DNA of 64,000 nucleotides, from the NCBI GenBank assembly GCA_965228875.1, contig OZ245843.1, positions 4,417,971 through 4,481,970 on the forward strand, read 5' to 3'. This document shows, piece by piece, positions 6,324 through 28,530 of the stretch. The position numbers were made by a program, and so were the translations under genes. Origin of the DNA: Thalassobaculaceae bacterium. Lineage in GTDB: Bacteria; Pseudomonadota; Alphaproteobacteria; Thalassobaculales; Thalassobaculaceae. Under the pieces are notes generated by a model. It made no database searches. It saw only the letters and a list, made by a program, of their open reading frames with translations, and had not been told where the DNA came from. Position 1 is the stretch's first letter. Each line of letters opens with the position of its first letter.

Positions 6324-7022
6324 ATGCTCGCCGCTGAAGATCTCAGGGCCGCCACCCTCTTCTCACGTCTCTCGGATCCCGAGGTCGACGCCCTGATCCC
6401 GATCCTCCGGGTCCAAGACCTGCCCAAGGGGACGTCGCTGTTCCGCGAGGGGGAGCCGATGGACCGGCTCTATCTCGTCATCAGCGGCTGGGTCACGCTG
6501 TTCCGCGATACCAGCGCCGGCCAGCGCGTGGTCATCCGGGTCTTCGGTCCCGGCGAAACCCTGGCTGAGGCGGCGTTGTTCCTCGACAGTATGTTTCCGG
6601 TCAGCGGTGAGGTGGCGGAGAATGCCCGCCTGGCCTCCCTGGATCGTCGAGCGTTCGAGCGGCTGCTCACGACCTCACCGCGGGTTGCCACCGGCATGAT
6701 CGCTTCGCTGGCCATGCACCTGCGTGCCCTGACGATCGAGATCGAACAACTCAAGACCCGCACCGCCACGGAGCGCGTCGCAGCCTTTCTGCTTACATGC
6801 TGCCCCGACCGGGGGCAGGCGGACTGCAGTTTCGAGTTGCCCTACGACAAGAGCCTGATCGCCCAGCGCCTGGGCATGCAACCGGAGAGCCTTTCCCGGA
6901 ATCTGGCCAGACTTCGTTCACACGGGATCTCCGTGGACCGCAATCGGGTGATTGTCGGCTCTCCGGGGGCTTTGGAACAAGCTCTGCGATCCGGCGACCT
7001 CGGGCGGTCGTTGGCGGGCTAG
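6324..7022 (+). CDS. Crp/Fnr-family transcriptional regulator (Dnr/NnrR-like, no N-terminal Fe-S Cys cluster)
   Basis: cNMP-binding fold (LFREGE...FGPGETLAE), ERVAAFLL, HTH recognition helix LGMQPESLSR. Confidence 0.92.
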   Translation: MLAAEDLRAATLFSRLSDPEVDALIPILRVQDLPKGTSLFREGEPMDRLYLVISGWVTLFRDTSAGQRVVIRVFGPGETLAEAALFLDSMFPVSGEVAENARLASLDRRAFERLLTTSPRVATGMIASLAMHLRALTIEIEQLKTRTATERVAAFLLTCCPDRGQADCSFELPYDKSLIAQRLGMQPESLSRNLARLRSHGISVDRNRVIVGSPGALEQALRSGDLGRSLAG

Positions 7023-7232
7023 GACGCGCGGCCTGTTCTCGACGGAACTGTCGCCACCTGTGGTGGAAGACTTGTGCCGGAAGCCGGCCGGGTGGGTTGA
7101 CGGAAGACCGCCGGGGGCCGCAGACTTCGTCCCGGGTTTCACCAAGGCATCAACCTGCGAAGGCGTCGGGGCCGGCACCGTTGCGTGCGATCCCTGAGCG
7201 TCGGATGAGGCAGGCGTCGAAAGGGGGCGGAC

Positions 7233-7688
7233 GTGGCGGTACGGTCTGTTTGGAGGACGATCGCTTGGTGGAGGACGGCGGCCGTTGCGGTCGCGCTGGC
7301 GACTGTTGCCGCCTTCTGGCCCTTCGACGCGCGGGCGGAGCAGAGGCTGGTCGTCGAACTGAACAAGCTCGAGAGTTTCGACGGCGGGTGCCGGACCTTC
7401 TTCCTCCTGCGCAACGCCGGGGGCGAGGCTTTCCAGTCGCTCGACATGTCGCTCGCGGTGCTGGACGGCGACGGCCGCATCGATCGCCTGCTGACCGTCG
7501 ATGCGGCGCCCGTACCGGCGGACAGGACGAGCCTGAAGCTGTTCGAGATTCCTGACGTCGCCTGCGACGGCGTCGGCGAACTGCTCCTGTACGAGATCGG
7601 CGCGTGCGCGACCGGATCCGACGACGGCGGCGACTGTTTCGACAGGGTCGAGTTGCGGTCGCGGGCGTCGATCCCGTTCGTGAAATAG
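7233..7688 (+). CDS. Exported hypothetical protein preceding exbBD (start uncertain)
   Basis: Signal-like N-terminus ending ARA-E; VELNKLE motif; four Cys; first gene of the exbB-exbD-exbD run. Confidence 0.7.
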   Translation: MAVRSVWRTIAWWRTAAVAVALATVAAFWPFDARAEQRLVVELNKLESFDGGCRTFFLLRNAGGEAFQSLDMSLAVLDGDGRIDRLLTVDAAPVPADRTSLKLFEIPDVACDGVGELLLYEIGACATGSDDGGDCFDRVELRSRASIPFVK

Positions 7689-7705
7689 CGCGCGACGGTC
7701 CTCCG

Positions 7706-8317
7706 ATGAGCATGTCTGCGATGATGGCTGCCGGAGGACCGATCGTTCTCCTTCTTCTGGTGCTCTCGGCGGTTTCGCTGGCGTTGATCGTCGCCAAGGC
7801 GGTGCAGATCGTCGGCGTCGCGCGTGGCCGGTCGACCCGGCTGGCGGCGGCTCGGGCCTGGGCCGAGAGCGGCGGCTCGGCGGCTGAGTTCGATGCCGGA
7901 GCCTTCGCCGGTCCGGTCGGACGCGTGTTCGAGGCCGCGGTTTCCGATCCGGCGGCGCCCGCGTCCACCCGCCACGCCCGTGCCGAGCGGGTCGCGCGCG
8001 GTGAACTGGCCGGGCTGCGCTCGACCCTCCGCCTGCTGGAGGTGATCGCTGTGGTCAGCCCGCTGCTTGGCCTCCTCGGCACGGTCACCGGGCTGATCGA
8101 GGCGTTTCAGGCGTTGGAGCAGGTCGGCGGCGGAGCCAACGCCTCGGTCCTCTCCGGCGGTATCTGGCAGGCGCTGCTGACGACGGCGATGGGGCTGATC
8201 GTCGCCATCCCCGCGGCGGCGGCGGGCAATCTTCTGGACGCAAGGGTCGAGGCCGCCGCCGTCGAGATGGAAAACCTGGCGAGCGTGGTGTTCGGCGAAA
8301 CGCTGGAAGCGCCTTAG
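7706..8317 (+). CDS. exbB: MotA/TolQ/ExbB proton channel protein
   Basis: SPLLGLLGTVTGLIEAF and GGIWQALLTTAMGLIVAIPA signatures. Confidence 0.93.
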   Translation: MSMSAMMAAGGPIVLLLLVLSAVSLALIVAKAVQIVGVARGRSTRLAAARAWAESGGSAAEFDAGAFAGPVGRVFEAAVSDPAAPASTRHARAERVARGELAGLRSTLRLLEVIAVVSPLLGLLGTVTGLIEAFQALEQVGGGANASVLSGGIWQALLTTAMGLIVAIPAAAAGNLLDARVEAAAVEMENLASVVFGETLEAP

Positions 8318-8331
8318 GGGCGGGCGGACAG

Positions 8332-8766
8332 ATGCGGCTGACGCGACGGCAGAGACCGAAAGCCCTGATCTCGCTGACGCCCCTGGTCGACGTCGTGCTG
8401 ATCCTGCTGGTCTTCTTCATGGTGACCTCAAGCTACCTTGATCTCGACGCCTTTCCGCTGGTCGACCGGACCGACCGGCCAACCGCCGACGGCGCGGTGA
8501 CGGGAGATGCCGGCGAAACCGAGGCAGGCGCACGGTCCTCCATGATGATCCTGCGCCTGGGGGCGGACGAGATGGCGCGGGGGCCGGGATTCGCGGTACC
8601 GCTGGCGCGGATGGAAGAGGTTCGCCCGATCCTGGCGGAGTATCCCCGGATCGCGATCCTGCCCTCGGGTGGCGCCTCGCTTCAGGGGCTCGTGACCGCC
8701 CTGGACGCGCTGACGGCCATGGGGATGGCCGATGTCCAGATCGTCCGGATCGGGGGCCAGCCGTGA
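8332..8766 (+). CDS. exbD: ExbD/TolR family protein
   Basis: ISLTPLVDVVLILLVFFMV transmembrane motif with the conserved Asp. Confidence 0.92.
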   Translation: MRLTRRQRPKALISLTPLVDVVLILLVFFMVTSSYLDLDAFPLVDRTDRPTADGAVTGDAGETEAGARSSMMILRLGADEMARGPGFAVPLARMEEVRPILAEYPRIAILPSGGASLQGLVTALDALTAMGMADVQIVRIGGQP

Positions 8767-9167
8767 ACCTGCGTCAGGACCGCGCCCGAACCCCGTATGA
8801 CAGCATCGCACCGCTGATAAATCTGTCGTTCCTGCTGCTGGTCTACTTTCTCCTGATCGGCACATTCGATGCGAGTGCGCCGTTCGACGTCTACCCGCCG
8901 GTGGCGCGGACCGGCCAGGATCTGCCGGCCGGCGGGTCGGTCCTGAGTCTCTCGGCCGACGGCGATGTGGCGTTCGACGGCGAGACCGTCGAACGGGAGA
9001 CTCTTGAAGCGGTGGCGCGCGCGGCGATCTCGGCGTCGCCGGAAAAGCGCTTCCTGCGGGTCAACGCCGATGGCCGGCTGCGCGTCCAAGAGATCCTGCC
9101 GCTGATCGACCTGATGGAGACGGCCGGAGCGACGACGGTGGTCCTGGTCGTCACTCCGCCCGGCTGA
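8763..9167 (+). CDS. exbD: Second ExbD/TolR family protein (Asn in place of the TM Asp)
   Basis: IAPLINLSFLLLVYFLL and RVNADGRL; 4-bp overlap with the first exbD. Confidence 0.88.
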   Translation: MNLRQDRARTPYDSIAPLINLSFLLLVYFLLIGTFDASAPFDVYPPVARTGQDLPAGGSVLSLSADGDVAFDGETVERETLEAVARAAISASPEKRFLRVNADGRLRVQEILPLIDLMETAGATTVVLVVTPPG

Positions 9168-9185
9168 CCGGATGGGGGGCGGGTC

Positions 9186-11015
9186 GTGAGCGCGGTCGGC
9201 CTGGAGCGGCGTCCCGTGGCCTGGCCCGCGACCGTGGCGGCGGTGTTCGTCTCGCTCGCGGTCCATGGTCTGGCGGTCTACTGGCTCGACCGGCGGGATA
9301 GGGACGGTGAACCGCTGCGCCCCGGGCCGCTGACCAGCAGCATCGACCTGTCCGGCGTCGACGTCCCCCAGTCCCGGGCGGAATCGACGCAACCGGAAAC
9401 CACGCCGTCGCCCGAGGCAGAGGCAACGTCCGCCGCCTATGGCGCCGTCGGGATCCGCAGCAGCCGCGCCGAACCGGCCGTGCCGGAGCGGAAGGCGATC
9501 GCCGGCGCGCACGCCCCGTCTGAGCGGTTGTCCGGAGCACCGGGCGACGGCCGCACCGTGGAGGCCGGCGCGCCGCAGAGCCCTCGGCTGGCGACGCGCC
9601 CACCGGCGGCGGATCGGACCGCCGGTACGCCGCCTGAAGGAGAGAGACTGGCGGGCCGTGAAGCGCCGCTCCCCGCCAGTGCGGTCCCCGCCGCGACGCC
9701 TGCTGGCGAACCGGTGACCACGGCGGTTCCGGGAGACCTGTCGGAGCGGCGATCGGCGGCGTCGCCGGCGGCCGCTGTCACGGTGCCTGACATGCCAAGG
9801 CCCAAGCGGCTGGCCGAGGCGACGGCAGGTGCCGTCCGGGTCACCGGGGCGCAGCCGCCTTCCGCTGTCGCCGTCCAGAGCGCCGCTGCGGCGGATCGCG
9901 GCGAGGTGGTTCGTGCAGTCCGCGGCGAGGAGGTCGCGGCGACGTCGGCGGGCGTTGCGGACCGGGCCGTCGAGGTACCCCCGGCACCGCCGCCGACGGA
10001 CCGTCGCGGTGATATCCGACCGGATGTGACCGAGGCAGCGAGCCGTGCGCCCGAAGTTGCTGAACAGGCGATGGCGACCGTCGCGGGTGAGGCGCCGAGG
10101 GTCGGGAACGCCCCCGCCCGTCTCGACCCGACGGTGGCGTCCGCCGGTCGCGCGACCGCCCTCGACCAAGTCCGGGCGGCGGCGGCACCGGTGCGGATGA
10201 GTTTCGCCGACTTGGCCGAAGCGCTCGCTGTGCTCGGCGACGAGGAATTCGCCCTGCTCACCGACGACGCTCGGGAGATCAGCCTCAGGCGGGCCGACGC
10301 GTTCAAGGGCGAGGTGGGCGACGTCATCGGACAGACGTTGGCATCCTTCCCTTGCAGTCGGTTGCAGGCCCGGTTCGACCCGGATAGCAACGTGATCGAC
10401 GTGCGTGGCCATGTCGCCACGCAGGGTCTCGCCGAGCAGGTGTCGCCGCTGATGGCGCGGGTGACCGGGGGGTCGCTTGCGGTGACCTCCAGCGTCCAGA
10501 TCCTGCCGTCCCCCCAATGCCGGGTGATGACGGCTTACGGCGCCATGGGCATCCCCCAGTCGAGCGACCAGCTCGACGATCCACTGACCGTCGGTCAGGA
10601 AGCTCAGGCCGCAATTCTCGATTTCCGGGTCGGTGCGGTGATGGCCCTGGAGATAGAGACGCCCGACTTCCCGTCGTATATCCGCGTCGACCTGTACAGC
10701 AGCGACGGAAAGGTGCTGCATGTCGTGCCATGGCGCGGGTTCGGGCTGGAGCCCTTCGCCCCGGCGATGGCGCTGCGGGTCGGCGACGGCACCGGCGGCG
10801 GTCCGGTGCTGGAGGCGGCACCGCCGGTCGGCGTCGACGTCGCCGTCATGCTGGCGACCAGCGCGCCCCTGCCCGACGGCGAGCGACCGGTGTCCGAACC
10901 GGCGGACACCTACCAGAAATGGTTGGCGCGGAGCCTCGATGCGGCCGGCCGAAACGACCCGGAGTTCAGGGCCGAGTGGGTCTATGCACTGGTCGAGACG
11001 GTGGCTGCGAACTAA
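9186..11015 (+). CDS. TonB/TolA-like membrane-anchored protein with long Ala/Pro linker and C-terminal Cys-paired/DUF4384-like module
   Basis: N-terminal TM helix with S-x3-H (SLAVH); several hundred low-complexity Ala/Pro residues; C-terminus FRVGAVMALEIETPDFPSYIRVDLYSSDGKVLHVVP resembles DUF4384 rather than TonB_C. Confidence 0.75.
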   Translation: MSAVGLERRPVAWPATVAAVFVSLAVHGLAVYWLDRRDRDGEPLRPGPLTSSIDLSGVDVPQSRAESTQPETTPSPEAEATSAAYGAVGIRSSRAEPAVPERKAIAGAHAPSERLSGAPGDGRTVEAGAPQSPRLATRPPAADRTAGTPPEGERLAGREAPLPASAVPAATPAGEPVTTAVPGDLSERRSAASPAAAVTVPDMPRPKRLAEATAGAVRVTGAQPPSAVAVQSAAAADRGEVVRAVRGEEVAATSAGVADRAVEVPPAPPPTDRRGDIRPDVTEAASRAPEVAEQAMATVAGEAPRVGNAPARLDPTVASAGRATALDQVRAAAAPVRMSFADLAEALAVLGDEEFALLTDDAREISLRRADAFKGEVGDVIGQTLASFPCSRLQARFDPDSNVIDVRGHVATQGLAEQVSPLMARVTGGSLAVTSSVQILPSPQCRVMTAYGAMGIPQSSDQLDDPLTVGQEAQAAILDFRVGAVMALEIETPDFPSYIRVDLYSSDGKVLHVVPWRGFGLEPFAPAMALRVGDGTGGGPVLEAAPPVGVDVAVMLATSAPLPDGERPVSEPADTYQKWLARSLDAAGRNDPEFRAEWVYALVETVAAN

Positions 11016-11199
11016 GAGCGAAGCCCGGCCGAGTCGAATTGACTCCCGGCCCCGGAAACACCACCATCCGACCTATACGGGAGGAGGCGCTCCCGGTGAT
11101 TCCGAATGACATCGCAGCAACGGGCGGCCGCTCGAAGCCGGTCGCGCATGTTTCGGGGCCGGGCGTCTCATGCCGGCCGATCGACGTGAGGAGGTGGGG

Positions 11200-11856
11200 A
11201 TGATCTGCAATCGCCGAGGATTTCGGGCAGGTGTTGTCGCGGCCGGAATCCTGTTCATGATCGGCGGCACCTTGCAGGCGGCCGACAAGAGCGTTCGGCA
11301 GTTCGGAGAGAGCGCGACCAAGTCTCAGATGCTCGACTATCTGCTGAACTCGCCGGCCCCAACAGCGGCCCCGGCGGCGGTCGATAGCGACCTGCTCAAA
11401 GGCCTGCCGGCCAGGGTCGATCCGAACAGCGTGGCGACGCGCGGCGGCATTCTCAAGCCGGAGCGCGCGACGCCGAGCGTGACGGCCCAGTCACCCTGTC
11501 CTGTGACGGACAAGGCGTTCGGTACAACCGTCAACTTCGCCGTCGGCTCCTACTATCTGGAGCCGTCGACCTTCTCGGTTCTGGGCGAGGTGGCCGACCT
11601 GATGACCGATGAGAAGCTGAAGGACTGCGCCTTCGTGGTCGAGGGACACACCGATTCCACGGGCAATCCGGATAAGAACAAGGTCCTGTCAAAGCAGCGG
11701 GCGGAGACGGTCGTGAAGTATCTCGAGAGCCATGGCGTGGCGGACTCGCGGATGGAACTCGAGGGCAAGGGGAGCACCGAGCCGGCGGACCCGGTCAATC
11801 CGGCGGCCGATATCAACCGGCGGGTCCAGTTCCGTTTCGTCGACCGTCAGGGCTGA
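11200..11856 (+). CDS. OmpA-like peptidoglycan-binding domain protein with signal peptide
   Basis: VNFAVGS...VEGHTDSTG...NKVLSKQRAETV...NRRVQF; GAGGAGG RBS. Confidence 0.92.
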   Translation: MICNRRGFRAGVVAAGILFMIGGTLQAADKSVRQFGESATKSQMLDYLLNSPAPTAAPAAVDSDLLKGLPARVDPNSVATRGGILKPERATPSVTAQSPCPVTDKAFGTTVNFAVGSYYLEPSTFSVLGEVADLMTDEKLKDCAFVVEGHTDSTGNPDKNKVLSKQRAETVVKYLESHGVADSRMELEGKGSTEPADPVNPAADINRRVQFRFVDRQG

Positions 11857-11900
11857 CGGTCTGGTCGGGCGATGGCACCACCGAGGCCGACGCGCAACGC

Positions 11901-12491
11901 TCAGCCCGTCGGCCTGCGGTGTCGGGTGGTCAGCGCGCCGTCCGTGAGCGTGTAAACCGCGACCTGCTCCCCGGCATCCTCCTCGGCGACGAAGCCGGCC
12001 AGGGGGCCGAAGAACGGTGTCAGGGAATCCGGTGTACCGGTCTTCAGGAAAAGGTGCAGCGCCCTCGGATCGTAGTAGCGGAAGGCGAGGCTGCGCCCGT
12101 CCTCGGTCATCACGATGTTGAATTTCCGCAGGTGACGCCGCAGCGCCGTCAGCTCGAGCGGCGACAGGATGTAGATCCCCCAGGCCTGCCCCCAGCCGTC
12201 GCGCAGGAGCCAGTCGGCCAGCAGCGACCCCTCCTCGATTTCCATCAGGTAGGGCGCGACTTCCGCAAGATCCTCGGCCAGTTCGCCCTGGTAGAGCGAA
12301 CGGACCCCCGCGCCCGTTCCCTTCAGTTTGCGGTGGATCGCGGTGTCGCGGGCCGCATCCAATGCCGCGAACAGGCGCACGCCGCCGTTCCCCGATCGGG
12401 CGTCGCGCAGGATGTCGGCGAGCAACTGGCGTCGCGCCTCGATGATGTTGCGGGAAGGGACGCCGGCATCCGGCGTGCCGATCATGCTCAT
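11901..12491 (-). CDS. DUF4123 T6SS effector chaperone (Tap-1/TEC-like)
   Basis: LFAALDAAR...SLYQG...VAPYL...WGIY...LRRHLRKF...FRYYDPRAL; ATGA-coupled to vgrG. Confidence 0.9.
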   Translation of the reverse strand: MSMIGTPDAGVPSRNIIEARRQLLADILRDARSGNGGVRLFAALDAARDTAIHRKLKGTGAGVRSLYQGELAEDLAEVAPYLMEIEEGSLLADWLLRDGWGQAWGIYILSPLELTALRRHLRKFNIVMTEDGRSLAFRYYDPRALHLFLKTGTPDSLTPFFGPLAGFVAEEDAGEQVAVYTLTDGALTTRHRRPTG

Positions 12492-14542
12492 GCGCCGGCC
12501 TCCCCGCAGATCTCGCAGAACGGAGTGCCCTTGACGGCGGCCTCGCGCAGGGCCGCGATCTGGCTGACGCGCTTGCGGGTGCCGGTACCCTTCGGCACGG
12601 TCTTCGGGCTGGTCAGGTCGGTCGTCGCACCCGGCTGGCCGTCATCGGCTGCCGCGGGCGCGTCCGGCGCCTGCGGGTTTGCGCTCAGGCTGCCCGATGA
12701 GCCGCCGCTGTTGATGAGAACCATCGGGCCCTGGATGGTCACGCCGCTGGGCCCCAGCGTGATGAAGCCCGCGCCGGCCTTGATGGTCAGCATCATCCCG
12801 GCCTCGATCATCACCTCCATGCCGGCCTTCACCGCGTAGTTCGTACCGGCCTTGGCGTGGAATTCCTGGGCGATGTCGAGGGAGTCGATACCGCCGATCC
12901 GGGTTGACCGGTCGCCACCGACATCTTCGTGCTGGTCGCCGCCGACCTTCTCGAACCGATCGTTGACGACGGTCTCGTGATGCTGGTCGCCCACATGGCT
13001 CCGCAGCGTCTCCTTGATCCGGAGGTCCATGTCCTTCTGGCCGTGCACGAAGATCTGCTCGCTACCGGCCTTGTCCTCGAACCGCAATTCGTTGAACCCG
13101 CCGCCGCCGGGAGAGGAGTTCGTCTTGATCGTCGAGCGGGTCTTGTGACCGGGCGGATCGTAGACCGGTTCGTTGACGGCGTTGTGGACGACCCCGGTGA
13201 TTAGCGGCCGGTCGGGATCTCCCTCCAGGAACGAGACGGCGACCTCCATGCCGATCCGCGGGATGAAGGTCTGGCCGAAGCGGATACCCGCCCATCCCTG
13301 GGCGACCCTGATCCAGCAGGAGCTCTTCTCGTCGTAGGCGCCGCGCCGATCCCAGTGAAACTGCACCTTCACCCGGCCGTGCCTGTCGACGTGGATCTCC
13401 TCGCCGCCCGGACCGGTGACGATGGCGGTCTGCAGGCCGTCGATCGTCGGTTTCGACGTGACCCGCGGAGCGCGGAACTGGGTGTCGGCGGGAATGCACT
13501 CGAAGGTCCCGCGGTATCGGGCGCCTCGCGGTTCGCCGAACTCCCAGTTGTTCTCCGCTTCGTGGGCGACGCGGGTGACAAGGTGGGAGACGTTGTAGCC
13601 TTCCACCTCGTGCTCGACGAGGTCGAAGGTGAAGCCTGGACAGATGGTGAACTCGTTGGTGGTTCCGGTCCGCATCCGACTGCGCGCCTCGAGGGCCTCC
13701 ATCCGGACCGAGGCGAAGGTGTCGCCGTCGCTCATCTCGCGGTAACGGCCGGGATAGTCGAAGACCTCCAGATCCTGGGCCGCCGGCAGGCCGGCGTTCG
13801 ATCCGATCCCGGCGATCAGCGAGGCCCGCGGCTTGAGCGGGTCGAAGTCGTTGAGCGTGACCCGGCCCGAGGTCACGCTTGCCACCTCCCGCCATTCCGA
13901 CACGCCGGACTCGTCGTCCCCCATCTCCTGGCGGGCCGCCCGAAGGGTGGCGCCACCGGCGATCGGCTGGTGCGCCATGGCCGTGTCGGCGAGCACCAGC
14001 GTGTGCCGGTCGTCCTCATGCTCGAAGTAGTAGTAGATCCCCTCTTCCTCGAAGAGCCTGGACAGGAAGGCGAACGAGGTCTCGCGGTACTGGACGCAAT
14101 AGGTCCGGTTGGCGAAGGCGCCGGACGTCTCGACGCGGAAATCGGTGAAGTTCATCTCGCCGAAGATCTCCTCGGCGATGGCGATCACGGATTTCTCCTG
14201 GAAGATCCTCGAGTCGGCCCGCAGCGACAGGAACCAGAACCAGGGACGCAGCGTGAGGGAGTAATGGTGGACCTGGTCGCTCTGCCGATAGCCGTCATAC
14301 TCGAAGGCGGCGACATACCCGTGAAAGTGCCGGTCGCGGCCCTCGACCGTCGTCAGCGTCACCACCGCCGGCAGCCCGAGAATCTCCGACGGGTCCGCGA
14401 TCGGATCGAGGGCGAAGGCCCGCACCCGGAACGCGAACAGTTCCGAGAGCGCTTCCTCGCCGGCCACCGATACGGCGAAGAGCCGGTCCGGTCCGAGCGG
14501 GGTGGCCATCCGCAGCAAATGGCTCGACTGGGCTCGATCCAT
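12488..14542 (-). CDS. vgrG: T6SS spike protein VgrG
   Basis: YCVQYRETSFAFLSRLFEEEGIYYYF, GRVKVQFHWDR, SCWIRVAQGWAG, PRIGMEVAVSFLEGDPDRP, FNELRFEDKAGSEQ; short C-terminal extension ending PFCEIC; start set at MDRAQSS. Confidence 0.97.
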   Translation of the reverse strand: MDRAQSSHLLRMATPLGPDRLFAVSVAGEEALSELFAFRVRAFALDPIADPSEILGLPAVVTLTTVEGRDRHFHGYVAAFEYDGYRQSDQVHHYSLTLRPWFWFLSLRADSRIFQEKSVIAIAEEIFGEMNFTDFRVETSGAFANRTYCVQYRETSFAFLSRLFEEEGIYYYFEHEDDRHTLVLADTAMAHQPIAGGATLRAARQEMGDDESGVSEWREVASVTSGRVTLNDFDPLKPRASLIAGIGSNAGLPAAQDLEVFDYPGRYREMSDGDTFASVRMEALEARSRMRTGTTNEFTICPGFTFDLVEHEVEGYNVSHLVTRVAHEAENNWEFGEPRGARYRGTFECIPADTQFRAPRVTSKPTIDGLQTAIVTGPGGEEIHVDRHGRVKVQFHWDRRGAYDEKSSCWIRVAQGWAGIRFGQTFIPRIGMEVAVSFLEGDPDRPLITGVVHNAVNEPVYDPPGHKTRSTIKTNSSPGGGGFNELRFEDKAGSEQIFVHGQKDMDLRIKETLRSHVGDQHHETVVNDRFEKVGGDQHEDVGGDRSTRIGGIDSLDIAQEFHAKAGTNYAVKAGMEVMIEAGMMLTIKAGAGFITLGPSGVTIQGPMVLINSGGSSGSLSANPQAPDAPAAADDGQPGATTDLTSPKTVPKGTGTRKRVSQIAALREAAVKGTPFCEICGEAGA

Positions 14543-14705
14543 GTGAGGTCCGCTTCTCCCTGAGCCGGGTCTCGGTCGCATCATATCCAGGGCCGGGGGC
14601 CTCGGCCATAGATCGAATGTCTCGGGGTGGTGTAGCGCAAGTTGCGCGTTTCCTCTACAAGTTCCCCGGATCGTTGGGGTGGCAGTTCTTATTCTGGAGA
14701 GCACG

Positions 14706-17216
14706 ATGACCCGGAACGGTAGATCCTCAACCGCCACCGGCCGGACCGGCCCGTTGGGGCGTGGCCTGCTCGTCGGGGCCGCCTTCCTTGTCGCCCTGGG
14801 GGTCGGTGTCCGAGTGTCTCCAGAAGGCGCCGCGACCGTCGCGGTCAGCACGGCCGAGGCCCAGGGGGCGAGGACGATGCTGCGCAACAGCAGCCGGGTG
14901 GTCCGCGACGCCATCCGCAACCAGATCCGCCAGGCGCTCACCGTGCGCCTGCGGGTCCAGGCGCCGCCGCGGGCGGAGGTCCAGCGGGTCGAATGGTCGT
15001 CGGACGGCACGATGGCCGCGGCCTTGCTCGCCGACGGATCGGGCGACGTCTGGTTTCTCGATCAGGGCGCCACCCTGCGGCTGCCGGTTCTCGGGGCTCC
15101 GCCTTTCCGCGACGTCGTGCTCTCGCCGGGCGGCGGCGGGTTGGTGGCCGTGATCGACCGCGACGACCGGGTCGCGATCGCCACGCTCGGCGCCCCGGCG
15201 CGGCGCGGTCCGACCGATTTTCCGGGCGGTCGTCCGGTGGCGCTGACGCCGCGCGGCGACCGCGCGGGCGTGCTGGTGTCCACCGTCGGCGGTACGGTGG
15301 TCGAGATCGGCGTCGACGGCTCCGCCAGGCGGCTCTGGTCCGCCGATGGCGGTACCATCGACGGGATCGACGCCGATTCCGATGGAGACCGCGTCGTCGT
15401 GCATGCCGATGGCCGGGTCGTCGAGCTGGCGATCGGACCGTCAGGACCGGCGACGGTCGAGGAAACCTGGCGGCTGACCGGCGTGCGGGATGTTGTCTAT
15501 GCGGCCAGTGGCCCGGTGGCGCTCCTGGACGATGGGACGGTCCATCGGCTGTCATCGGACGGCACCCGGTCCGCCGCCGAAAGTCCTGTGTCGGGAGACC
15601 GGCTTCTGGCGTCCGACGACGGCGCCTTCGCCGTGCTGACCGATGACGGCGACGGGGCGGTCTGGCCCGGAACGGGGAATGCCCGACCGGCCCGCTTCGC
15701 CATCGGTGCCGAGAATGTTGCCGAGGCGACGCTGACTCCGGGCGCCGCGCTGGTGATGGTGCGGCGGGAGAATGGCTGGGTCGACGGACATGACGTTGCC
15801 ACGGCGGCCGGCGGCCGGGTGCTGCGCATGGTCGCCACCCGCTCCGGCTGGGCCGCCGTGGATAGCCGCGGGCGCTATGACGGATCCTTGGACGCCCTCA
15901 CGGAGGTCGGTTGGGGCGACGACGGCACCTTCATCGAGTTGGAGCGGTTCGCGGAACTGTATTTCGAGCCAGGCCTGGTTCGCCGCTACCTGGCGCGTCG
16001 GCGCGATTTTCTGACCGCGCCGCCGGAACCGATTGTCGACGACACCGAGATCGCGGCGCCGCCGGAGGTGTCGGTGTCCGTGGACCGGGCGCCGGCCACG
16101 GCCGGACAGGCCCTCGTCGCCTCCGGATCCGTCACGTCCCCCGAACCGGTGGTCGAGGTGCGGGTGTTCCACAACGGCCGCGCCCTGCCGCCCGAGGCGG
16201 TCGTCACCGGTACCAGTGACGACGGCGGTGTTCAGACGGTCACCGTGACGACCGACACGCAGGCGAGCGAGGGGGAGAACACCCTCCAGGTCGTTGCCCA
16301 GACCGAGTCCGGCCTGGTCACGGCATCCGATGTGCAGACGGTCACGGTGGCGCCGCCGCCGGCCCCGCCTCCGGCACCCCGCCTGGTGGTCAAGAGTTTC
16401 GGGATCAACGACTACGCCAGCCCTGAGCTGAAACTGAATTTCGCCGCCGCCGACGCGGAGGCCATCGCCGACCGGTTCTCCCGGTCCGAGGTGTTCGAAC
16501 CCTCCTACCGGACCAAGGACGTCTATCTGGATTCCAATGCCGGACGGTCCACGATCCTCGGTCAGATGCAGAGCCTGCAGTCGCTTGGCGCCGACGATAT
16601 GGCCGTCATCTTTCTGTCCGGTCACGGGGTGGCGACCCCTGACCTGGGCGACTGGTACTTCCTGCCCTACGAGGCCCGCAGCCTGAGCGATCTGGACCAC
16701 ATCGCCGGGGTCGGGATCAGCGACGGCTTTCTCGTCTCGGCGATCACCGATCTCAAGGTCGACCGGGTGCTGCTGATGATAGATAGCTGCCAGTCCGGCG
16801 TGGTCGCCGACGAGTTCTCGCGCTACCGACAGCGCCGCTCCCTCAAGCGGATCGCCGACCGCACCGGAATACAGATCCTCACGGCGACCCGGCCCGACCA
16901 GCTAGCACTGGAGGTGCGCGAACTCGGCCATGGCCTCTTCGCCTATGTCGTGCTTGCCGCGCTCGATCGCGACTCGCGCGGACGCTACCGCGCCGATCTG
17001 GGGCCGATCGACGGACGTGTCTCGGTCGCCGAACTGAGGTCCTACGTCGAGACGAACGTACCGGTGGTGGCCCAGACACTGATGGAGGCGATGGGTCGCA
17101 GCGGACAGGGAACGCAGGTCGCCTCGGCTGCATCCACCCGGACCCGCGGCGGCGCCGGGACGAGCGTGGTGATGCCGGTCTCGGCGGCCTATGGCCGGAA
17201 CTTCACTGTCTACTGA
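14706..17216 (+). CDS. Exported beta-propeller (WD40-like) plus caspase-like peptidase C14 protein
   Basis: Signal peptide ending AEA-Q; repeat-rich middle; Ig-like segment (VRVFHNG...GENTLQVVA); C14 domain GINDY...LNFAAADA...FLSGHG...IDSCQSG...GHGLFAY with catalytic His and Cys intact. Confidence 0.88.
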   Translation: MTRNGRSSTATGRTGPLGRGLLVGAAFLVALGVGVRVSPEGAATVAVSTAEAQGARTMLRNSSRVVRDAIRNQIRQALTVRLRVQAPPRAEVQRVEWSSDGTMAAALLADGSGDVWFLDQGATLRLPVLGAPPFRDVVLSPGGGGLVAVIDRDDRVAIATLGAPARRGPTDFPGGRPVALTPRGDRAGVLVSTVGGTVVEIGVDGSARRLWSADGGTIDGIDADSDGDRVVVHADGRVVELAIGPSGPATVEETWRLTGVRDVVYAASGPVALLDDGTVHRLSSDGTRSAAESPVSGDRLLASDDGAFAVLTDDGDGAVWPGTGNARPARFAIGAENVAEATLTPGAALVMVRRENGWVDGHDVATAAGGRVLRMVATRSGWAAVDSRGRYDGSLDALTEVGWGDDGTFIELERFAELYFEPGLVRRYLARRRDFLTAPPEPIVDDTEIAAPPEVSVSVDRAPATAGQALVASGSVTSPEPVVEVRVFHNGRALPPEAVVTGTSDDGGVQTVTVTTDTQASEGENTLQVVAQTESGLVTASDVQTVTVAPPPAPPPAPRLVVKSFGINDYASPELKLNFAAADAEAIADRFSRSEVFEPSYRTKDVYLDSNAGRSTILGQMQSLQSLGADDMAVIFLSGHGVATPDLGDWYFLPYEARSLSDLDHIAGVGISDGFLVSAITDLKVDRVLLMIDSCQSGVVADEFSRYRQRRSLKRIADRTGIQILTATRPDQLALEVRELGHGLFAYVVLAALDRDSRGRYRADLGPIDGRVSVAELRSYVETNVPVVAQTLMEAMGRSGQGTQVASAASTRTRGGAGTSVVMPVSAAYGRNFTVY

Positions 17217-18259: not shown

Positions 18260-20191
18260 GTGCGGTCCAGAGCCAGGCCTTATGACGTTCCGGACCTCAA
18301 GGTTCATCTGACCTATCAGTCCGAGGTCGATGGTCGAGAGGTCGAACTGCCGTTCGTCGTCGGCGTGGTCGGCGCGTTCCGCGGGGAACGGGACGATGCC
18401 CGTGAACCGGTGTATGAGCGCGAGTTCGAGGACGTCTCCGAGCGCGGTGTGGATGTTCTGCTGGCGCGGTGGAAGCCGCAGGTCAGTGTCGCGGTGCCCG
18501 ACCGGGCGGGCGGTGGCGCGCAGGCGGTAGCGCTGCGCTTCGCCGGCTTGAAGGACTTTCAACCCGAGGCTTTGATCCGCCAGGTGCCGGCGCTCGCCGA
18601 TGACCATCGGACCCGCGACATTCTCGTCGATCTGAGGGATCGCCTGATGACCGCGGCCGGGCCGCGCCGTATGGCCTATGGCGCCGGAACGCTGGCGGAC
18701 GATACCGTCTCGGAGGACGACGCCGCGCTTGTGGAGATCCTGGCGACGGCGGTGGATGCAGCCCGCGCCGCGTCGCCGCGCACCCCGGAATACCGGGAGA
18801 CCATCGACCGGGCGGTGGACGGAATCCTGGCCGGGATCGGCGACCTGTCGGTACGAACGGTCATGGAGGCGATCGACCTCGACGTCGCGGAGATCGACGC
18901 GGCGTTGTCGCGGCGGTGCGATGCGATCCTGCACGATCCCGGGTTCCAGCGGTTGGAGGCGCTCTGGAGAGGTGTGGACCTGCTGGTCCGCCGCGGCGAT
19001 TCCGACCCGCTCGTCATCGTGAAGGTGCTCGACCTCACCCGCGAGGAACTGGAACAGGATCTGTCGACCCACATCGCGCCGGACGACTTCCAGCGCGCCG
19101 CCGTTCTCGATTCCACGCTCTTCCGGATCATCTATTCAGAGGAGTTCGGCCAGTTCGGCGGCCACCCGTTCGGCCTGATCCTGCTGGACGAGTACATCAC
19201 GCCCGCCGCGACGGATGTCCGCTTGGCCGAGCGTCTGGCCACGATCGGCGAGGCGGCCCATTGCCCGGTCATCGCCGCTGCCGCGCCGGAGATGTTCGGA
19301 ATCCCGGCGTACTCCGACCGCGATTGGGGGCACGGCGATCTGCGGTCGCTCTTCGGCGAGGCCCGCTACGCCGAATGGCGGGCCCTGCGTCAGAACCCCG
19401 TGTCGCGATATCTGGGTCTGGTCCTCCCGCGGTTTCTGCTGCGCGACCCCTATCGGTCGGCCGGACGCCAGACCATGCCCTTCGACTTCGAGGAAAAGGT
19501 GGCCGACGGGGACGGTCTGCTCTGGGGCAATGGCGCCTTCGCCTTCGCCCTGACGGTGGTTTCGGCTTTTGCGCGCTACCGGTGGTGCACGGCGATCACC
19601 GGTCTGGAGGGTGGCGGGGCGGTGAGCGGGCTCGTCGCGCCGGACTACGGCACCGACGAGGGCGCCCACGTCTTCCGTCGCGCCACCGAGAGGGTGATCT
19701 CGACCCGTCACGAGCGCGATCTCGCGGTGGCCGGGTTCATACCGCTGGTGCAGCGGCCGGGTCAGGCCGAGCCGGTGTTCTGTTCGGCCTTCTCGGTCAA
19801 CCTGCCGTCGGGGCGCCTGGGCATGGATCCGATGTCGGAGCGGCTTTCGGCGCGCCTGCCCTACATGTTCGCCGCATCGCGTATCGCTCACTACGTCAAG
19901 GCCAACATGCGGGAGCGGATCGGCGGTCAGGCGAGCATGAGCCGGCTTCAGTCCAACGTCAGCCGCTGGATCTCCCAGTATGTGGCCTATCAGGACGACG
20001 TGGACGACGAGGTCAAGGCGGAGCGTCCGCTACGCGATGCCCGCGTCACCGTCCTTCCCTCGGAAGACGAGCCGGGACGGTTTACTTTCCGTATGGAGGT
20101 CCAGCCGCATTTTCAACTCGAGGAAATGGGGATAAATTTGGTCGTCGGCCGGCTGGCGGAGAGCGTCGAGGACAACCAGGGCGGGCATTAG
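18260..20191 (+). CDS. tssBC: Fused T6SS contractile sheath protein TssB-TssC (VipA-VipB)
   Basis: N-terminus KVHLTYQ...ELPFVVGVVGAF...LRFAGLKDFQPEALIRQVP is TssB-like. It continues in frame into EIDAALSRRCDAILHDPGFQRLEALWRG...EEFGQFGGHPFG...LPRFLLRDPY...LWGNGAF...LPYMFAASRIAHYVK...RPLRDARV...PHFQLE, which is TssC-like. Confidence 0.9.
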   Translation: MRSRARPYDVPDLKVHLTYQSEVDGREVELPFVVGVVGAFRGERDDAREPVYEREFEDVSERGVDVLLARWKPQVSVAVPDRAGGGAQAVALRFAGLKDFQPEALIRQVPALADDHRTRDILVDLRDRLMTAAGPRRMAYGAGTLADDTVSEDDAALVEILATAVDAARAASPRTPEYRETIDRAVDGILAGIGDLSVRTVMEAIDLDVAEIDAALSRRCDAILHDPGFQRLEALWRGVDLLVRRGDSDPLVIVKVLDLTREELEQDLSTHIAPDDFQRAAVLDSTLFRIIYSEEFGQFGGHPFGLILLDEYITPAATDVRLAERLATIGEAAHCPVIAAAAPEMFGIPAYSDRDWGHGDLRSLFGEARYAEWRALRQNPVSRYLGLVLPRFLLRDPYRSAGRQTMPFDFEEKVADGDGLLWGNGAFAFALTVVSAFARYRWCTAITGLEGGGAVSGLVAPDYGTDEGAHVFRRATERVISTRHERDLAVAGFIPLVQRPGQAEPVFCSAFSVNLPSGRLGMDPMSERLSARLPYMFAASRIAHYVKANMRERIGGQASMSRLQSNVSRWISQYVAYQDDVDDEVKAERPLRDARVTVLPSEDEPGRFTFRMEVQPHFQLEEMGINLVVGRLAESVEDNQGGH

Positions 20192-20319: not shown

Positions 20320-20826
20320 ATGGCGTATTCCGCTTTCGTGCAGTTCGAGGGGATCGAGGCGACCACGTACGACCCACGGTATCCGGGTGCGGCCCGGCTC
20401 ATCGCCTTCGACCAGATCATGCAGCAGCCGACCGCGGGCTCGGCGGTCGCCGGCGGGGAGGCGACGGCCGGGCGGGTCGATCATGGCGACTTCAACCTCG
20501 TGAAGGCGATCGACGCGGCCAGCCCGATCCTGTCGCTGTACTGCAGTTCGGGTGCGATCGTCTCGAAGGTGACGATCTCGGTCGCCGAGGAGTCGGAGGA
20601 TCTGCTGCCGTTCTACGAATTCGTTCTCGACCGTGTGCTGGTACGCTCGATCCAGCCGGCGCTGAAACTTGAGTTCGGGCACGCCAACGAAGCGATTGCC
20701 CCGTACGAGACGATCAGCCTACGGTACCAGAAAGTCACATGGCGCTATACGTTCCTCGACAATGACGAGAGTGGCCGGGGAAGCATCCAGCACTACTGGG
20801 ACCTCTACAAGAACCGAGGATCCTAG
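20320..20826 (+). CDS. hcp: T6SS tube protein Hcp (TssD)
   Basis: GRVDHGDFNLVKAIDAASPIL...PYETISLRYQKVTWRY...YWDLYKN. Confidence 0.92.
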   Translation: MAYSAFVQFEGIEATTYDPRYPGAARLIAFDQIMQQPTAGSAVAGGEATAGRVDHGDFNLVKAIDAASPILSLYCSSGAIVSKVTISVAEESEDLLPFYEFVLDRVLVRSIQPALKLEFGHANEAIAPYETISLRYQKVTWRYTFLDNDESGRGSIQHYWDLYKNRGS

Positions 20827-20949: not shown

Positions 20950-21438
20950 ATGGACTACTATCTTAATCTGCCGTCCCTGGTCGACTCGCTGATCGACGAC
21001 GCGCCGGATCAGCCGTGGGACGGTTTCGAGCCTCCGTCCCTCGCCCGTCTGGAGCAGTGCCTGCGGCGTGACCTCGAGGAACTGCTGAACAGCCAGGCCC
21101 TCTTTCCGCGGTTCCAGGGGCGCCATGCGGATCTTGCCAGGACGACCGTCGCCTTCGGGCTGAGCGACCTCTATCGGGTCAACCCGTCGAGCCGGCAGCA
21201 CCGTGAACGGCTGCGCCGCGAGATCGAGGAGAAGATCGCGACCTTCGAGCCACGGCTCCATGACGTTCGCGCCCTTGAGGTGCAGATGGCGCCGGGCAAC
21301 GAACTGCGGCTCGAGTTCCGCGTCGAGGGGACGTTGCGGTTCATGCGGGAGGAGGTGCCGATCTCCCTCTCGGCTCGACTGAACGCGGCGGATAACCGGG
21401 TGGTTATTCATCGTTTCGCCGCAGGGGATGGACGGTGA
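20950..21438 (+). CDS. tssE: T6SS baseplate subunit TssE (gp25-like)
   Basis: PSLVDSLIDD...RRDLEELLNS...FGLSDL...IATFEPRL. Confidence 0.92.
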   Translation: MDYYLNLPSLVDSLIDDAPDQPWDGFEPPSLARLEQCLRRDLEELLNSQALFPRFQGRHADLARTTVAFGLSDLYRVNPSSRQHRERLRREIEEKIATFEPRLHDVRALEVQMAPGNELRLEFRVEGTLRFMREEVPISLSARLNAADNRVVIHRFAAGDGR

Positions 21439-23318: not shown

Positions 23319-24430
23319 CCGAGCGCCTGCGGGAGGCGCCGGAGACGTTCGGCATCCTGCAACTGGCGCGGCTGGTGTCTCTCGTGCGGGCCGGCGGCCC
23401 TGAACGGAGGTTTCCGGGTGGGGTTCGATACCGCTCGAACCCGGCGCTCGATTACCCCGTCGCGGCGGTGGAGGCGGTCGAAGAGGAGCCCGACGGTGGC
23501 TGGACCGCCGACGTCAACCTGATCGGCACGCTCGGGCCGAACGGAACGCTCCCGTGGCACTACAACGAGCAGATCGTTCGCCACGAGCAGACCGTTGTGG
23601 ACGGCCGGCGTCCCTCGATCCGCGCCTTCTACGACATATTCGACCACCATTTCGCCGAACTGCTCTGCGCGGTGCTCGCGCGCCGCCACCTCGCTCTGGC
23701 GGTCGAGCGCGGCGAGGAGCGCGGTCTGGAGCGGGTGCTGAACAGCGTTGCCGGGATCGGTCTGCCGGCGGTGCGCGATGTGTTTCGCGATACGCAGACC
23801 TTCCGGGTTCGACAGCTTCAGCGCTTCGCCGGCCTGCTCGGCCGTACGCCAAGCTCGCCCCAGGCGGTGTCGCAGATGCTCACGGCGATTCTCGGCGTGC
23901 GGGTGGAGGTCCGGCCGTTCGAAGGGCACTGGACCTATCTTCCGCCGGCGTCGCGGGCGCGGCTCGGGCGCAGGAGCGGTAGCCGGACACGCGGTGGGTC
24001 GGGCGCGCGCGCGCCCCGACTGGGCGACTGGCCGACACTCGGCGGGCGGGTCTGGGGCCTTCAGGGGGCCATGGGCGTCCGGGTCGGACCGCTGAGCGGC
24101 GCGGAGTTCGCCCGGTTCCTTCCGAACGGCCGGGGCCGGTCCCTGATCTCCGCCGCGCTGGTCCAGGAACTCATTCTGTTCCTTCGCCTGACGCTGGGGG
24201 CGAACTACGACTACAAGATCAATCTGACGGTCGCGCGCGAGGCGATCCGGGGCACTCGGCTGAGGCAAAGGCCCGCGCGGGGAGCGCAGGCCGACGGTGT
24301 GCCCGGCGAACTTCCGCCCCTTCTCGGTCTCACGACCTGGGTCAGCGGCAGGCAATCGCGGGATCGGGACGACCCGGTGCTGTGGGTCGGTGGATGGCAG
24401 AAACTGGAGGTAGGGGCGTCTCATGGATAG
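23282..24430 (+). CDS. tssG: T6SS baseplate subunit TssG
   Basis: GILQLARL...LGPNGTLPWHY...AFYDIFDHHF...VRPFEGHW...VGPLS; overlaps the tssF 3' end as usual. Confidence 0.9.
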   Translation: MAMPRGRLPDRIAERLREAPETFGILQLARLVSLVRAGGPERRFPGGVRYRSNPALDYPVAAVEAVEEEPDGGWTADVNLIGTLGPNGTLPWHYNEQIVRHEQTVVDGRRPSIRAFYDIFDHHFAELLCAVLARRHLALAVERGEERGLERVLNSVAGIGLPAVRDVFRDTQTFRVRQLQRFAGLLGRTPSSPQAVSQMLTAILGVRVEVRPFEGHWTYLPPASRARLGRRSGSRTRGGSGARAPRLGDWPTLGGRVWGLQGAMGVRVGPLSGAEFARFLPNGRGRSLISAALVQELILFLRLTLGANYDYKINLTVAREAIRGTRLRQRPARGAQADGVPGELPPLLGLTTWVSGRQSRDRDDPVLWVGGWQKLEVGASHG

Positions 24431-25895: not shown

Positions 25896-26031
25896 GATCA
25901 AGGCGGTGTGCGCTAAGTAGCATTGACGATAGTTCGCTGGCGGAGTTCCCTAAGTGCGGGAAAATCTATCCGGCGGAGTTTGAGGCAGGGACTATTCGTG
26001 GCGCGTCGAACCGGGCGTGGGATGGGGGAGC

Positions 26032-27120: not shown

Positions 27121-28530
27121 ATGACCGAACGACGTAGCCTTCTGGACGTGTTCACCCCGGTGATGCTGGACGTCCTCGATGTCGAGGATGGCCTCGCCCG
27201 GGGCGATGGCAGCGTGCCCTCGGCGGAGCAGAAGACGGAGGAATGGCTGGCGACGATCGACGAGGCGGTCGCCACGGCCGAACGCCTCGGCCACAGCAGC
27301 CAGAACGCAGAGATCGCCAAGCGTGCCGTGATCGCCTGGATCGACGACATCATGGGGCTCCGGCGGGACTGGTACGGCCGGGTCACCAACCTTCAGTCCC
27401 GCGTGTACAACGGCGCCTCGGTGCTCGGCCGAAAGTTCTACGAGGACCTGGAGGCCCTCAGCAAGGACAGTCAGAGAGACGTCTTCGACGTGTTCTTCGT
27501 CTGCCTCGCCCTCGGCTTCAAGGGAGAGAAGCTCCTGTACGCCGGATCCGACGTGGACCGCGAGGCGGCCCGCCTCAAGCAGGATGTCAGTTTCCACCTG
27601 TCGACGGACCGCATCGATCTCGACAGGCTGCCCGGCCAGAAGATCTTCGCCCAGCCCTATCAGCAGGACGACCCGCCGCCGCCGCCGCCGGGCCCGCCTC
27701 TGCCGCGATCCTATGGCAAGATCCTTGCTGCGCTGGCGGCGGTTCTGTTGCTGGCGGCGATCGGCGCCGGGTACTGGCTGACCCGGAGCGAGACCGACTG
27801 GCGGGCGCATATCCAGGCGGCGGCCGAGGAGGCGGTTGGGCGCTACGAATGCGCCAGCGTCTCGGTCCGGACGGCGCCGGACCTGTCGCTGTCCTACAAG
27901 GGTTTCGTCGGGTCGGAGGACGATCGCGGCGCGCTCGAGGCGGACCTGCTGGGCATCGAGCGGGTGGAGCGGGTCACCGGCACGCTTGAGGTCATGCCTT
28001 GGCCGCTTTGCGCCGTGCTTGTGATCCTGGAGGATACGGTGCTCAACGACGGTTCCCGGTCGGAGACTCCGACGGTTGCGGTCAACCATCGTGACGGGAG
28101 GTATCGTCACCGCGACCTCCTGGTCACTGACGTGACGGTGCCGGCGGCGGAGCCCGGTCACCTTCTGGTCAGCTATGTCGGGCAGGCGGACACCGTCACC
28201 CATCTGTTCCCGAACGAAGACGTCGTTTCCAGCCGGGCCGATCCGAAGATGCGATTGCGCCTCGGATACGCGGAAGGCGCGGCCTCCGATGCCGGCGGGT
28301 ACGATGTGCAGACCAACCTCATGTATCCGCTGTCGGCGGACCCCGAAGGGCCCAGTCTGGTGTTCGCTGTCTGGAGCGCGGAACCGATCCTCGACGGCTT
28401 CGCGCCGGTGTCGCAGCAGCGGACCGACGAGTTCCTTGCGGCGCTCCGCGCGGCTGTGGATGCGTCCAATGCGTCGGACGACGCCGCCAGGCTCTATGCC
28501 CGCACGGTGACGATCACCGTGGCCCGGTAG
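27121..28530 (+). CDS. tssL: TssL/DotU fused to a periplasmic Cys-paired/DUF4384-like module
   Basis: AKRAVIAWIDDIM...LQSRVY...GRKFYEDL...VFFVCLALGFKG (DotU); poly-Pro; TM helix; then YEC...GFVGS...PWPLC...YRHRDLL...VSYVGQADTVTHLFP. Confidence 0.85.
   Translation: MTERRSLLDVFTPVMLDVLDVEDGLARGDGSVPSAEQKTEEWLATIDEAVATAERLGHSSQNAEIAKRAVIAWIDDIMGLRRDWYGRVTNLQSRVYNGASVLGRKFYEDLEALSKDSQRDVFDVFFVCLALGFKGEKLLYAGSDVDREAARLKQDVSFHLSTDRIDLDRLPGQKIFAQPYQQDDPPPPPPGPPLPRSYGKILAALAAVLLLAAIGAGYWLTRSETDWRAHIQAAAEEAVGRYECASVSVRTAPDLSLSYKGFVGSEDDRGALEADLLGIERVERVTGTLEVMPWPLCAVLVILEDTVLNDGSRSETPTVAVNHRDGRYRHRDLLVTDVTVPAAEPGHLLVSYVGQADTVTHLFPNEDVVSSRADPKMRLRLGYAEGAASDAGGYDVQTNLMYPLSADPEGPSLVFAVWSAEPILDGFAPVSQQRTDEFLAALRAAVDASNASDDAARLYARTVTITVAR

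Follow-up and report, generated by a model that had tools for sequence, protein, structure and literature searches.

What does a proton motor drive when the TonB-like protein encoded beside it has no TonB_C domain and no TonB-dependent receptor nearby? The question is raised by a 64,000-nucleotide stretch of the genome of a Thalassobaculaceae bacterium (contig OZ245843.1, positions 4,417,971-4,481,970; assembly GCA_965228875.1), hereafter the window, in which a plus-strand gene at 9186..11015, with a GTG start, encodes a TonB/TolA-like transducer of 609 amino acids (aa) that we refer to as the arm. A sequence-only reading of this DNA had proposed that the arm delivers proton motive force to a target other than a TonB-dependent receptor, plausibly part of the adjacent machine resembling a type VI secretion system (T6SS). 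Our analysis suggests that the arm is the force- or signal-transmitting part of a dedicated Ton/Tol-type proton motor that is accessory to T6SS, a reading to which we assign a probability of roughly 0.55. From its anatomy and linkage, the arm is very probably best described as a Ton/Tol-type transducer, and a functional tie between it and T6SS is likely.

The arm and the adjacent motor genes

The arm gene is the last of a close-packed plus-strand run, extending from 7233 to 11015, that encodes a small secreted protein, ExbB, two ExbD paralogues and the arm, and within which the exbB, exbD, exbD and arm genes are separated by at most 18 bases or overlap. This same-strand gene order confirms the earlier placement of the arm in the position of tonB, after exbB-exbD-exbD. 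The first gene (7233..7688) specifies a 151-aa protein with a signal-peptide-like N-terminus, four invariant Cys residues and an immunoglobulin-like (Ig-like) character. It is followed by an ExbB/TolQ-family proton-channel subunit (7604..8317, probable start ATG 7706; PF01618, E 1.3e-27), whose best NCBIfam match is TolQ at 71.4 bits, far under the cut-off of 221. The two ExbD/TolR paralogues, also on the plus strand, lie at 8332..8766 (PF02472, E 1.8e-10) and 8763..9167 (PF02472, E 1.4e-16); the first, for which the closest NCBIfam model is TolR, again far under the cut-off, has the membrane-helix Asp (LVDVVLILL), and the second has Asn at that site (LINLSFLLL). A motor with this Asn could run on a single protonatable Asp (ExbD1 keeps its own) or be impaired.

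To place this gene order in a wider context, loci encoding arm-family proteins were collected with one genome per species, yielding 259 loci, of which the best 80 were kept for neighborhood counts. These 80 derive mostly from Rhodobacterales, together with Pelagibius, Denitrobaculum, Roseospira and an Inquilinaceae metagenome-assembled genome. ExbB-ExbD-ExbD immediately precedes the arm in 67 of the 80, which amounts to 67 of the 68 loci that have upstream DNA, as the upstream DNA is shorter than 1.2 kb in 12 of the 13 loci without the motor genes. The small secreted gene directly precedes exbB in every locus with motor genes (67/67). Thus, the secreted four-Cys Ig-like protein, ExbB, the two ExbDs and the arm constitute a conserved five-gene unit. 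The one true exception among the 68 loci, L023 from Rhodophyticola, encodes the C-terminal module alone (9990-10796): helix, linker and motor genes are all missing, and the module lies at a contig end, immediately behind an unrelated AMP-binding-type gene. Such a module may be free-standing or a remnant.

The arm begins with a membrane helix, residues ~16-34 (9231..9287, plus strand), which is its sole N-terminal hydrophobic segment and contains S23-x3-H27-x6-L34; the SLAVH segment, residues 23-27, lies at 9252-9266 on the plus strand, so that both the hydrophobic segment and the coordinates given in the sequence-only reading are confirmed. An N-terminal helix is present in 137 of 154 arm-family proteins checked, and the motif within it is S-x3-H in 119, S-x3-N in 12, [A/T]-x3-H in five and another combination in one. 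S-x3-H or S-x3-N is therefore retained in 131 of the 137 helix-bearing members, with Asn as the only common stand-in for His; the earlier interpretation, which a motif not conserved among homologs would have refuted, withstands this check, and, judged by sequence comparison, the conservation of the motif is greater than expected by chance. His20 of Escherichia coli TonB can reportedly be replaced by Asn. Leu occupies position H+7 in 77 of 134 arm-family members, the window arm among them. With Ser, His and this Leu, the arm helix has three of the four residues that make up the TonB and TolA SHLS motif; cryo-electron microscopy structures show the motif's Ser and His in contact with helix 1 of ExbB/TolQ (PMC12215075).

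Between helix and C-terminus the arm has an Ala/Pro-rich linker of ~290 residues (residues 46-339; 9321..10202, plus strand) that is 23.1% Ala and 13.3% Pro, in agreement with the very long linker noted earlier. Linker length varies within the family, whose full-length proteins have about 430 to 760 aa. The public protein P0002, which is nearly identical to the arm, is 599 aa long and starts 10 codons further in than the arm open reading frame (ORF). A scan for promoters and terminators over 6900-12100 yielded nothing exceeding shuffled controls.

The periplasmic module and its paralogs

The C-terminal module of the arm (residues 340-609; 10203..11012) shows no sign of being a TonB or TolA output domain. 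The whole arm matches no Pfam family at E ≤ 10 and no NCBIfam family, and its last 271 aa return neither TonB_C nor TolA_C from Pfam, only chance-level hits to TetR_C_31 (E 0.014) and DUF7846 (E 0.14); the part without a TonB_C signal comprises ~230 residues. Across the family, none of 82 aligned members matches TonB_C (PF03544) at E ≤ 1e-3, nor do any match a TolA-type domain. When the arm family was compared by hhalign with the genome's own TonB, only the membrane helix aligned, and not significantly (E 0.13). No TonB or TolA chain is among the 50 VIA matches listed for the arm tip, an absence that is not proof.

Instead, the module belongs with DUF4384 (PF14326, cut-off 27 bits). Of the 82 aligned family members, 80 match this model at E ≤ 1e-3, and 12 match BON_like. 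The window copy is one of the two missing and has no DUF4384 match even at E ≤ 10, and so the label given to it in the sequence-only reading, DUF4384-like, holds by homology and not by a match of its own: its relatives match the model, and the window copy is too diverged to do so. In keeping with this, phmmer connects the window arm to P0004-P0006 with E values from 7.6e-52 to 2.9e-33, these proteins score 32-41 bits on PF14326, and the nearest Atlas clusters are DUF4384 proteins (score 0.93). When residues 340-609 served as query in an exhaustive phmmer search, 826 cluster representatives passed E ≤ 1e-3, of which 197 also passed E ≤ 1e-30. Among the 150 matches listed, nearly all run almost to the last residue of the protein, and a few shorter proteins look N-terminally truncated. 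The only name that the family carries in public records is "DUF4384 domain-containing protein".

An AlphaFold2 model of residues 340-609, built from an 82-sequence alignment, has a predicted local distance difference test score (pLDDT) of 92.4 and a predicted template modeling score (pTM) of 0.85. The predicted fold has four parts, all encoded on the plus strand: three helices (to ~10343), an alpha-beta-beta-alpha-beta domain that may resemble BON and ring-building domains (~10359-10544), the DUF4384 Ig-like beta-sandwich (~10587-10901), and a closing helix and strand (~10902-11003). The earlier claim that the C-terminus is unlike TonB_C is thus borne out both by the Pfam searches and by a model with a different, two-domain fold. 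Cys445 is invariant and Cys390 nearly so, and a periplasmic disulfide between them is a reasonable reading of that conservation. Foldseek returned only weak Ig-like matches in the PDB (best E 9e-4, TM 0.2-0.3), and a profile of the arm family found nothing significant among PDB sequences, YscD appearing at E 0.08.

A paralog of the module is encoded within the window itself, on the T6SS inner-membrane protein TssL (DotU; 469 aa; 27121..28530, plus strand; DotU, E 6.5e-18), the periplasmic part of which, residues ~234-459 (27820-28497, plus strand), is related to the arm tip by sequence comparison. BLASTP aligns the two over 240 columns with E 5e-4, pairing Cys390 and Cys445 of the arm with two Cys residues of TssL, and hhalign does so over 206 columns with a probability of 94.8 and E 5e-8. 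A hidden Markov model of the module detects the window TssL (E 4.9e-12), its homolog P0160 (1.6e-15) and nine kinase ORFs (1e-29 to 8.5e-5). P0160 is a metagenomic TssL, 53% identical to that of the window, that combines DotU with DUF4384 at 27.4 bits (cut-off 27). Elsewhere, a Ser/Thr kinase carries the second copy of the module, as in Rubrimonas, in loci L005, L017, L068 and L080 and in Pelagibius, Denitrobaculum and Leisingera genomes. In Rubrimonas the arm lies directly beside a kinase with DUF4384 and Fha, and in Pelagibius and Denitrobaculum a kinase-plus-DUF4384 protein is encoded 25-27 kb from sheath genes, with the motor unit elsewhere. When 39 modules were placed in a tree, the arms grouped together (support 100/99), and the two TssL modules formed a separate group (100/99) that sits, at weaker support (90/77), with the kinase modules and outside the arms; long branches leave the deep order unsure. 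Searches for further TssL proteins with the module found none in 60 relatives, a word-index search with the TssL C-terminus returned only itself, and two metagenome scans with P0003 and P0160 found no sister locus (53-56% identical). Caspase proteins were also considered as module carriers and rejected, the window and Leisingera caspases giving an hhalign probability of 0.1.

Linkage to type VI secretion genes

The earlier proposal that the arm acts on a T6SS-like machine gains support from comparative genomics, through gene placement, co-occurrence and the module shared with TssL; the caspase that had been named as a candidate partner does not carry the module. T6SS core genes lie within 10 kb of the motor-plus-arm unit in 51 of the 80 loci, and at least four gene orders, besides that of the window, link the two. 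In the Roseobacter type the order is TssE, TagJ, Hcp, TssC, TssB, TssA, two ORFs, the unit, a caspase and OmpA-YceI; in Rubrimonas it is VgrG, DUF4123, the unit, a kinase with DUF4384, Fha, TssK and TssL. In L038 the arm is followed by a methyltransferase, TssA, TssB and onward, and in L080 a caspase and a kinase precede the unit, which is followed by TssA and onward. Among 201 genomes of one family, that of Leisingera, about one in nine carries the arm, and a T6SS sheath gene is present in 21 of the 22 arm-bearing genomes versus 30 of the 179 without it, counts that, the genomes being related, represent a pattern and not a statistical test. In 13 of the 22 the arm and a sheath gene are on the same contig and at most 8 kb apart. 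All five genomes with a unit but no T6SS gene within 10 kb carry sheath genes elsewhere.

Published roseobacter T6SS clusters are reported to lack tssJ, and their non-T6SS genes are drawn as gray "other"; the available part of that account does not mention exb, tol, TonB or caspase, which its supplementary gene-content tables may name (PMC9515649). In many arm-bearing roseobacter genomes VipB matches a second time, more weakly; the long frames concerned (570-1780 aa) probably correspond to the "TssCL" long sheath protein of PMC9515649. The fused sheath of the window, at 643 aa, is much shorter than those long frames. The Leisingera T6SS cluster with the motor unit (L019, 15746-19385) adjoins ParA/ParB-type genes, and public records place the Leisingera copies on ~110 kb plasmids.

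Within its own order the arm family was found only in the window's genome, one of 63, and in none of the 10 other genomes of the genus; a search of 60 relatives gave only three weak matches, confined to the DUF4384 region. There is no compositional island signal, G+C content being even across the window (0.63-0.72). As stated in the sequence-only reading, the window encodes no TonB-dependent receptor: all 10 barrel matches of the genome (nine over the cut-off) lie elsewhere, the nearest at C1:4737565 (the window ends at 4481970). The genome also encodes a canonical TonB_C protein, beside another ExbB, and TolB, with TolB_N found only at C1:242-562, and so the arm unit is not needed for ordinary Ton or Tol work. 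Two further sheath loci are present, a canonical T6SS with a 1228-aa TssM frame at C1:1936648-1948781 and a VipB match in an 823-aa frame at C1:4534207-4535121, about 52 kb beyond the window.

The T6SS of the window itself is stripped down. As assigned by Pfam, it comprises a fused TssB-TssC of 643 aa (18260-20191), Hcp (20320-20826), TssE (20950-21438), TssF (21435-23318), TssG (23282-24430) and TssK (24423-25895), followed by a soluble, IcmF_N-only TssM-like protein of 345 aa with no evident membrane helices or periplasmic domains (26017-27054) and by TssL. TssJ, TssA, ClpV, a kinase and Fha are absent from the window ORFs scanned. On the minus strand, Pfam identifies VgrG (12488-15010) and, downstream of it, a DUF4123 adaptor (11901-12491); since the Pfam match to VgrG begins only at residue 185, the listed ORF probably extends too far 5′.

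An OmpA-family peptidoglycan-binding protein of 228 aa (11170..11856, plus strand; PF00691, E 6.9e-20) is encoded 154 bases 3′ of the arm; its NCBIfam matches, to YiaD, PA1041 and Pal-type lipoproteins, are all under the cut-offs. A search with the window protein places an OmpA-type gene at most 10 kb away in 42 of the 80 loci, and one with Leisingera OmpA-YceI does so in 50 of the 80. An 845-aa caspase-domain protein with an N-terminal hydrophobic segment (Peptidase_C14, residues 574-777; 14679-17216, plus strand) has counterparts next to the motor unit in 57 of the 80 loci by tblastn with the Leisingera caspase, including L014, which has no nearby T6SS gene. Beyond TssL, the plus strand of 28574-35258 contains several ORFs that lack a clear family: proteins of 399 aa (weak PHO4 match), 234 aa and 467 aa, a DUF3592 protein (32338-33462) and an autotransporter beta-domain barrel protein (33630-35258). 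The Arg/Pro-rich ORFs at 6797-7555 and 11919-12839 match no family and look spurious, the second overlapping the DUF4123 gene on the opposite strand.

Proposed action, alternatives and known systems

In the model that we favor, ExbB and the two ExbD paralogs would form an inner-membrane motor on which the single helix of the arm would dock by its S-x3-H(-x6-L) face, in the manner of TonB and TolA, while the ~290-residue linker would carry the C-terminal module into the periplasm. There the module would not act as a TonB-box binder; it is an old paralog of the module found on TssL in the window and on PpkA-like Ser/Thr kinases elsewhere. Within this model, the tip would most probably pair with this sister module or compete with it for a shared periplasmic partner, such as the four-Cys Ig-like protein or the OmpA-type protein, and the T6SS membrane platform would be assembled or activated according to proton motive force and the state of the envelope. 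The analysis shows the domain anatomy, the homology, the conservation of the motif, the gene linkage and the co-occurrence. We infer that the arm couples to ExbB, which partner it contacts and in which direction it affects secretion, and direct contact of the tip with TssL in particular is a tentative proposal that we regard as doubtful.

Several observations weigh against this model. Where the window ExbD2 has Asn, the ExbD2 segments printed for the 67 related loci all have Asp, and so the window copy of the motor may work differently or poorly. Helix 1 of the arm-family ExbB retains Ser and has no Trp where E. coli ExbB/TolQ meets the Ser-His pair; the docking geometry may therefore differ, and its identity with that of TonB or TolA is not to be assumed. 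No T6SS gene accompanies the unit within 10 kb in L011, L014 or L028, and the steady neighbors of the unit in L014 are instead a caspase-domain protein and an OmpA protein. Because the co-occurrence counts were drawn from related, non-independent genomes, they overstate the evidence, and 30 of the 51 sheath-positive genomes lack the arm, which hence is not a general part of T6SS. Finally, TssL with the module is found only in the window and in one metagenomic protein, and the C-terminus of the window arm does not match DUF4384 in Pfam and its branch is long (1.62).

One rival to the favored model is a self-contained, Tol-Pal-like envelope system, in which a TolA-like arm would use proton motive force to move or release the OmpA-type protein or to tether the outer membrane, with T6SS as a mere co-traveler on islands and plasmids. 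The best matches of ExbB and ExbD1 to the TolQ and TolR models (far under the cut-offs), the OmpA-family gene 3′ of the arm and its counterparts within 10 kb in 42 to 50 of the 80 loci, the L014 unit with its caspase and OmpA genes away from T6SS and the plasmid location of the Leisingera copies are all consistent with such a system. Yet it leaves unexplained why the tip is paralogous to modules of TssL and of kinases in T6SS clusters and why the sheath gene accompanies the arm so much more often than it occurs without it (21/22 versus 30/179); moreover, the unit contains neither TolB nor a part resembling TolA_C, and the genome already has a TolB. We consider this account unlikely, if worth keeping in mind. 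The Ton-like architecture of the unit could alternatively reflect energized re-uptake or export through an outer-membrane channel that is not TonB-dependent, candidates being the autotransporter-type barrel 22 kb downstream (33630-35258) or TpsB-type barrels elsewhere, such as that of the TpsB/TpsA pair that follows the unit in L014. Across the Pfam-examined loci, however, no barrel gene is a steady neighbor, the barrels seen differ in family from locus to locus, and the tip has no strand-pairing domain like TonB_C; we judge this explanation highly improbable.

It is also conceivable that the arm is not coupled to the motor at all and is a membrane-anchored periplasmic DUF4384 sensor or scaffold that is merely co-transcribed with exbB-exbD-exbD. 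The link to ExbB is drawn from sequence, the ExbB helix-1 Trp that TonB and TolA contact in E. coli is not at the equivalent place, and the alignment with the genome's TonB covers the membrane helix only. Set against this are the position of the arm behind the motor genes in 67 of 68 loci, the retention of S-x3-H/N in 131 of 137 helices with Asn as the sole common substitute for His, and the fact that the unit holds no other TonB/TolA-like gene to serve the motor, and we judge an uncoupled arm to be highly improbable. A bolder extension of the favored model starts from the absence of a TssM periplasmic domain and of TssJ from the window T6SS, whose TssL bears the BON-like plus DUF4384 module. 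According to this view, the motor (ExbB-ExbD1-ExbD2) and arm would be a structural, energizing part of a new type of T6SS membrane complex: TssL and the arm would assemble together in the periplasm through their ring-building-like modules, and proton motive force would open, anchor or reset a trans-envelope passage. We consider this quite unlikely; if true, the window T6SS would be the first to draw part of its drive from a 5:2 motor of the Ton/Tol type.

In the literature on DUF4384, T6SS and ExbB/ExbD/TonB-like proteins, we found no paper that describes the arm family or a link between a Ton/Tol motor and T6SS. The extracytoplasmic triggers of T6SS assembly are known in few model species, and the arm family offers a concrete, testable candidate for such an input, one that is widespread, with the 826 cluster representatives in the protein library and the 259 loci mostly from marine Rhodobacterales. 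DUF4384, a domain of unknown function that is common on bacterial kinases and caspases, also gains a first structural and contextual frame. The window represents a rare variant in which the module resides on the TssL of a stripped-down T6SS, and it could show what the module does without a kinase step.

Comparison with known systems places the arm unit between several of them. As in the Ton system, the arm gene follows exbB-exbD, the protein has a single helix with S-x3-H(-x6-L) and a long Pro-containing spacer, and it probably couples to a 5:2 proton motor. Unlike TonB, however, the arm has no TonB_C and no nearby TonB-dependent receptor, its tip being a BON-like plus DUF4384 module, and its unit contains two ExbD paralogs and an additional secreted four-Cys protein and is linked to T6SS genes, not to genes for nutrient uptake. 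The S-x3-H helix and long Ala-rich spacer are reminiscent of TolA, and the motor subunits are nearest to TolQ and TolR and adjoin an OmpA/Pal-type gene, as in Tol-Pal. In contrast to Tol-Pal, the arm lacks the TolA C-terminal domain and its unit lacks TolB, which the genome encodes separately; and whereas Tol-Pal is a housekeeping system, the arm unit is patchy and island-like, present in one of 63 genomes of the order.

In Pseudomonas aeruginosa, TagQRST provides the upstream input to the PpkA-Fha threonine phosphorylation pathway of T6SS. The arm resembles this pathway in its occurrence in T6SS clusters and in the homology of its tip to the periplasmic part of PpkA-like alphaproteobacterial kinases, a relationship that, at the level of sequence, suggests a role upstream of T6SS activation. 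The arm itself, unlike PpkA, has no kinase domain; the window ORFs scanned include neither a kinase nor Fha, the module being on TssL instead, and no TagQRST-like genes were seen. The tip can also be compared with ring-building and BON-like domains, including those of YscD/CdsD/PrgH and PrgK/EscJ of type III secretion systems and of the BON proteins DolP and OsmY. Ton/Tol/Mot-type motors also operate elsewhere, in Agl-Glt gliding with the TonB-like GltG/GltJ, in GldLM of type IX secretion and in Zorya. These systems differ from the arm unit in their arm proteins and output domains, and a T6SS link was found for none of them in the papers searched, while all share with it a proton-driven inner-membrane motor and a periplasm-spanning arm in a machine not devoted to uptake. 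The known jobs of Ton/Tol-type motors are to import nutrients, to maintain the outer membrane and to power gliding and type IX secretion, and the arm family points to an addition to these, an undescribed energy-coupled input to T6SS.

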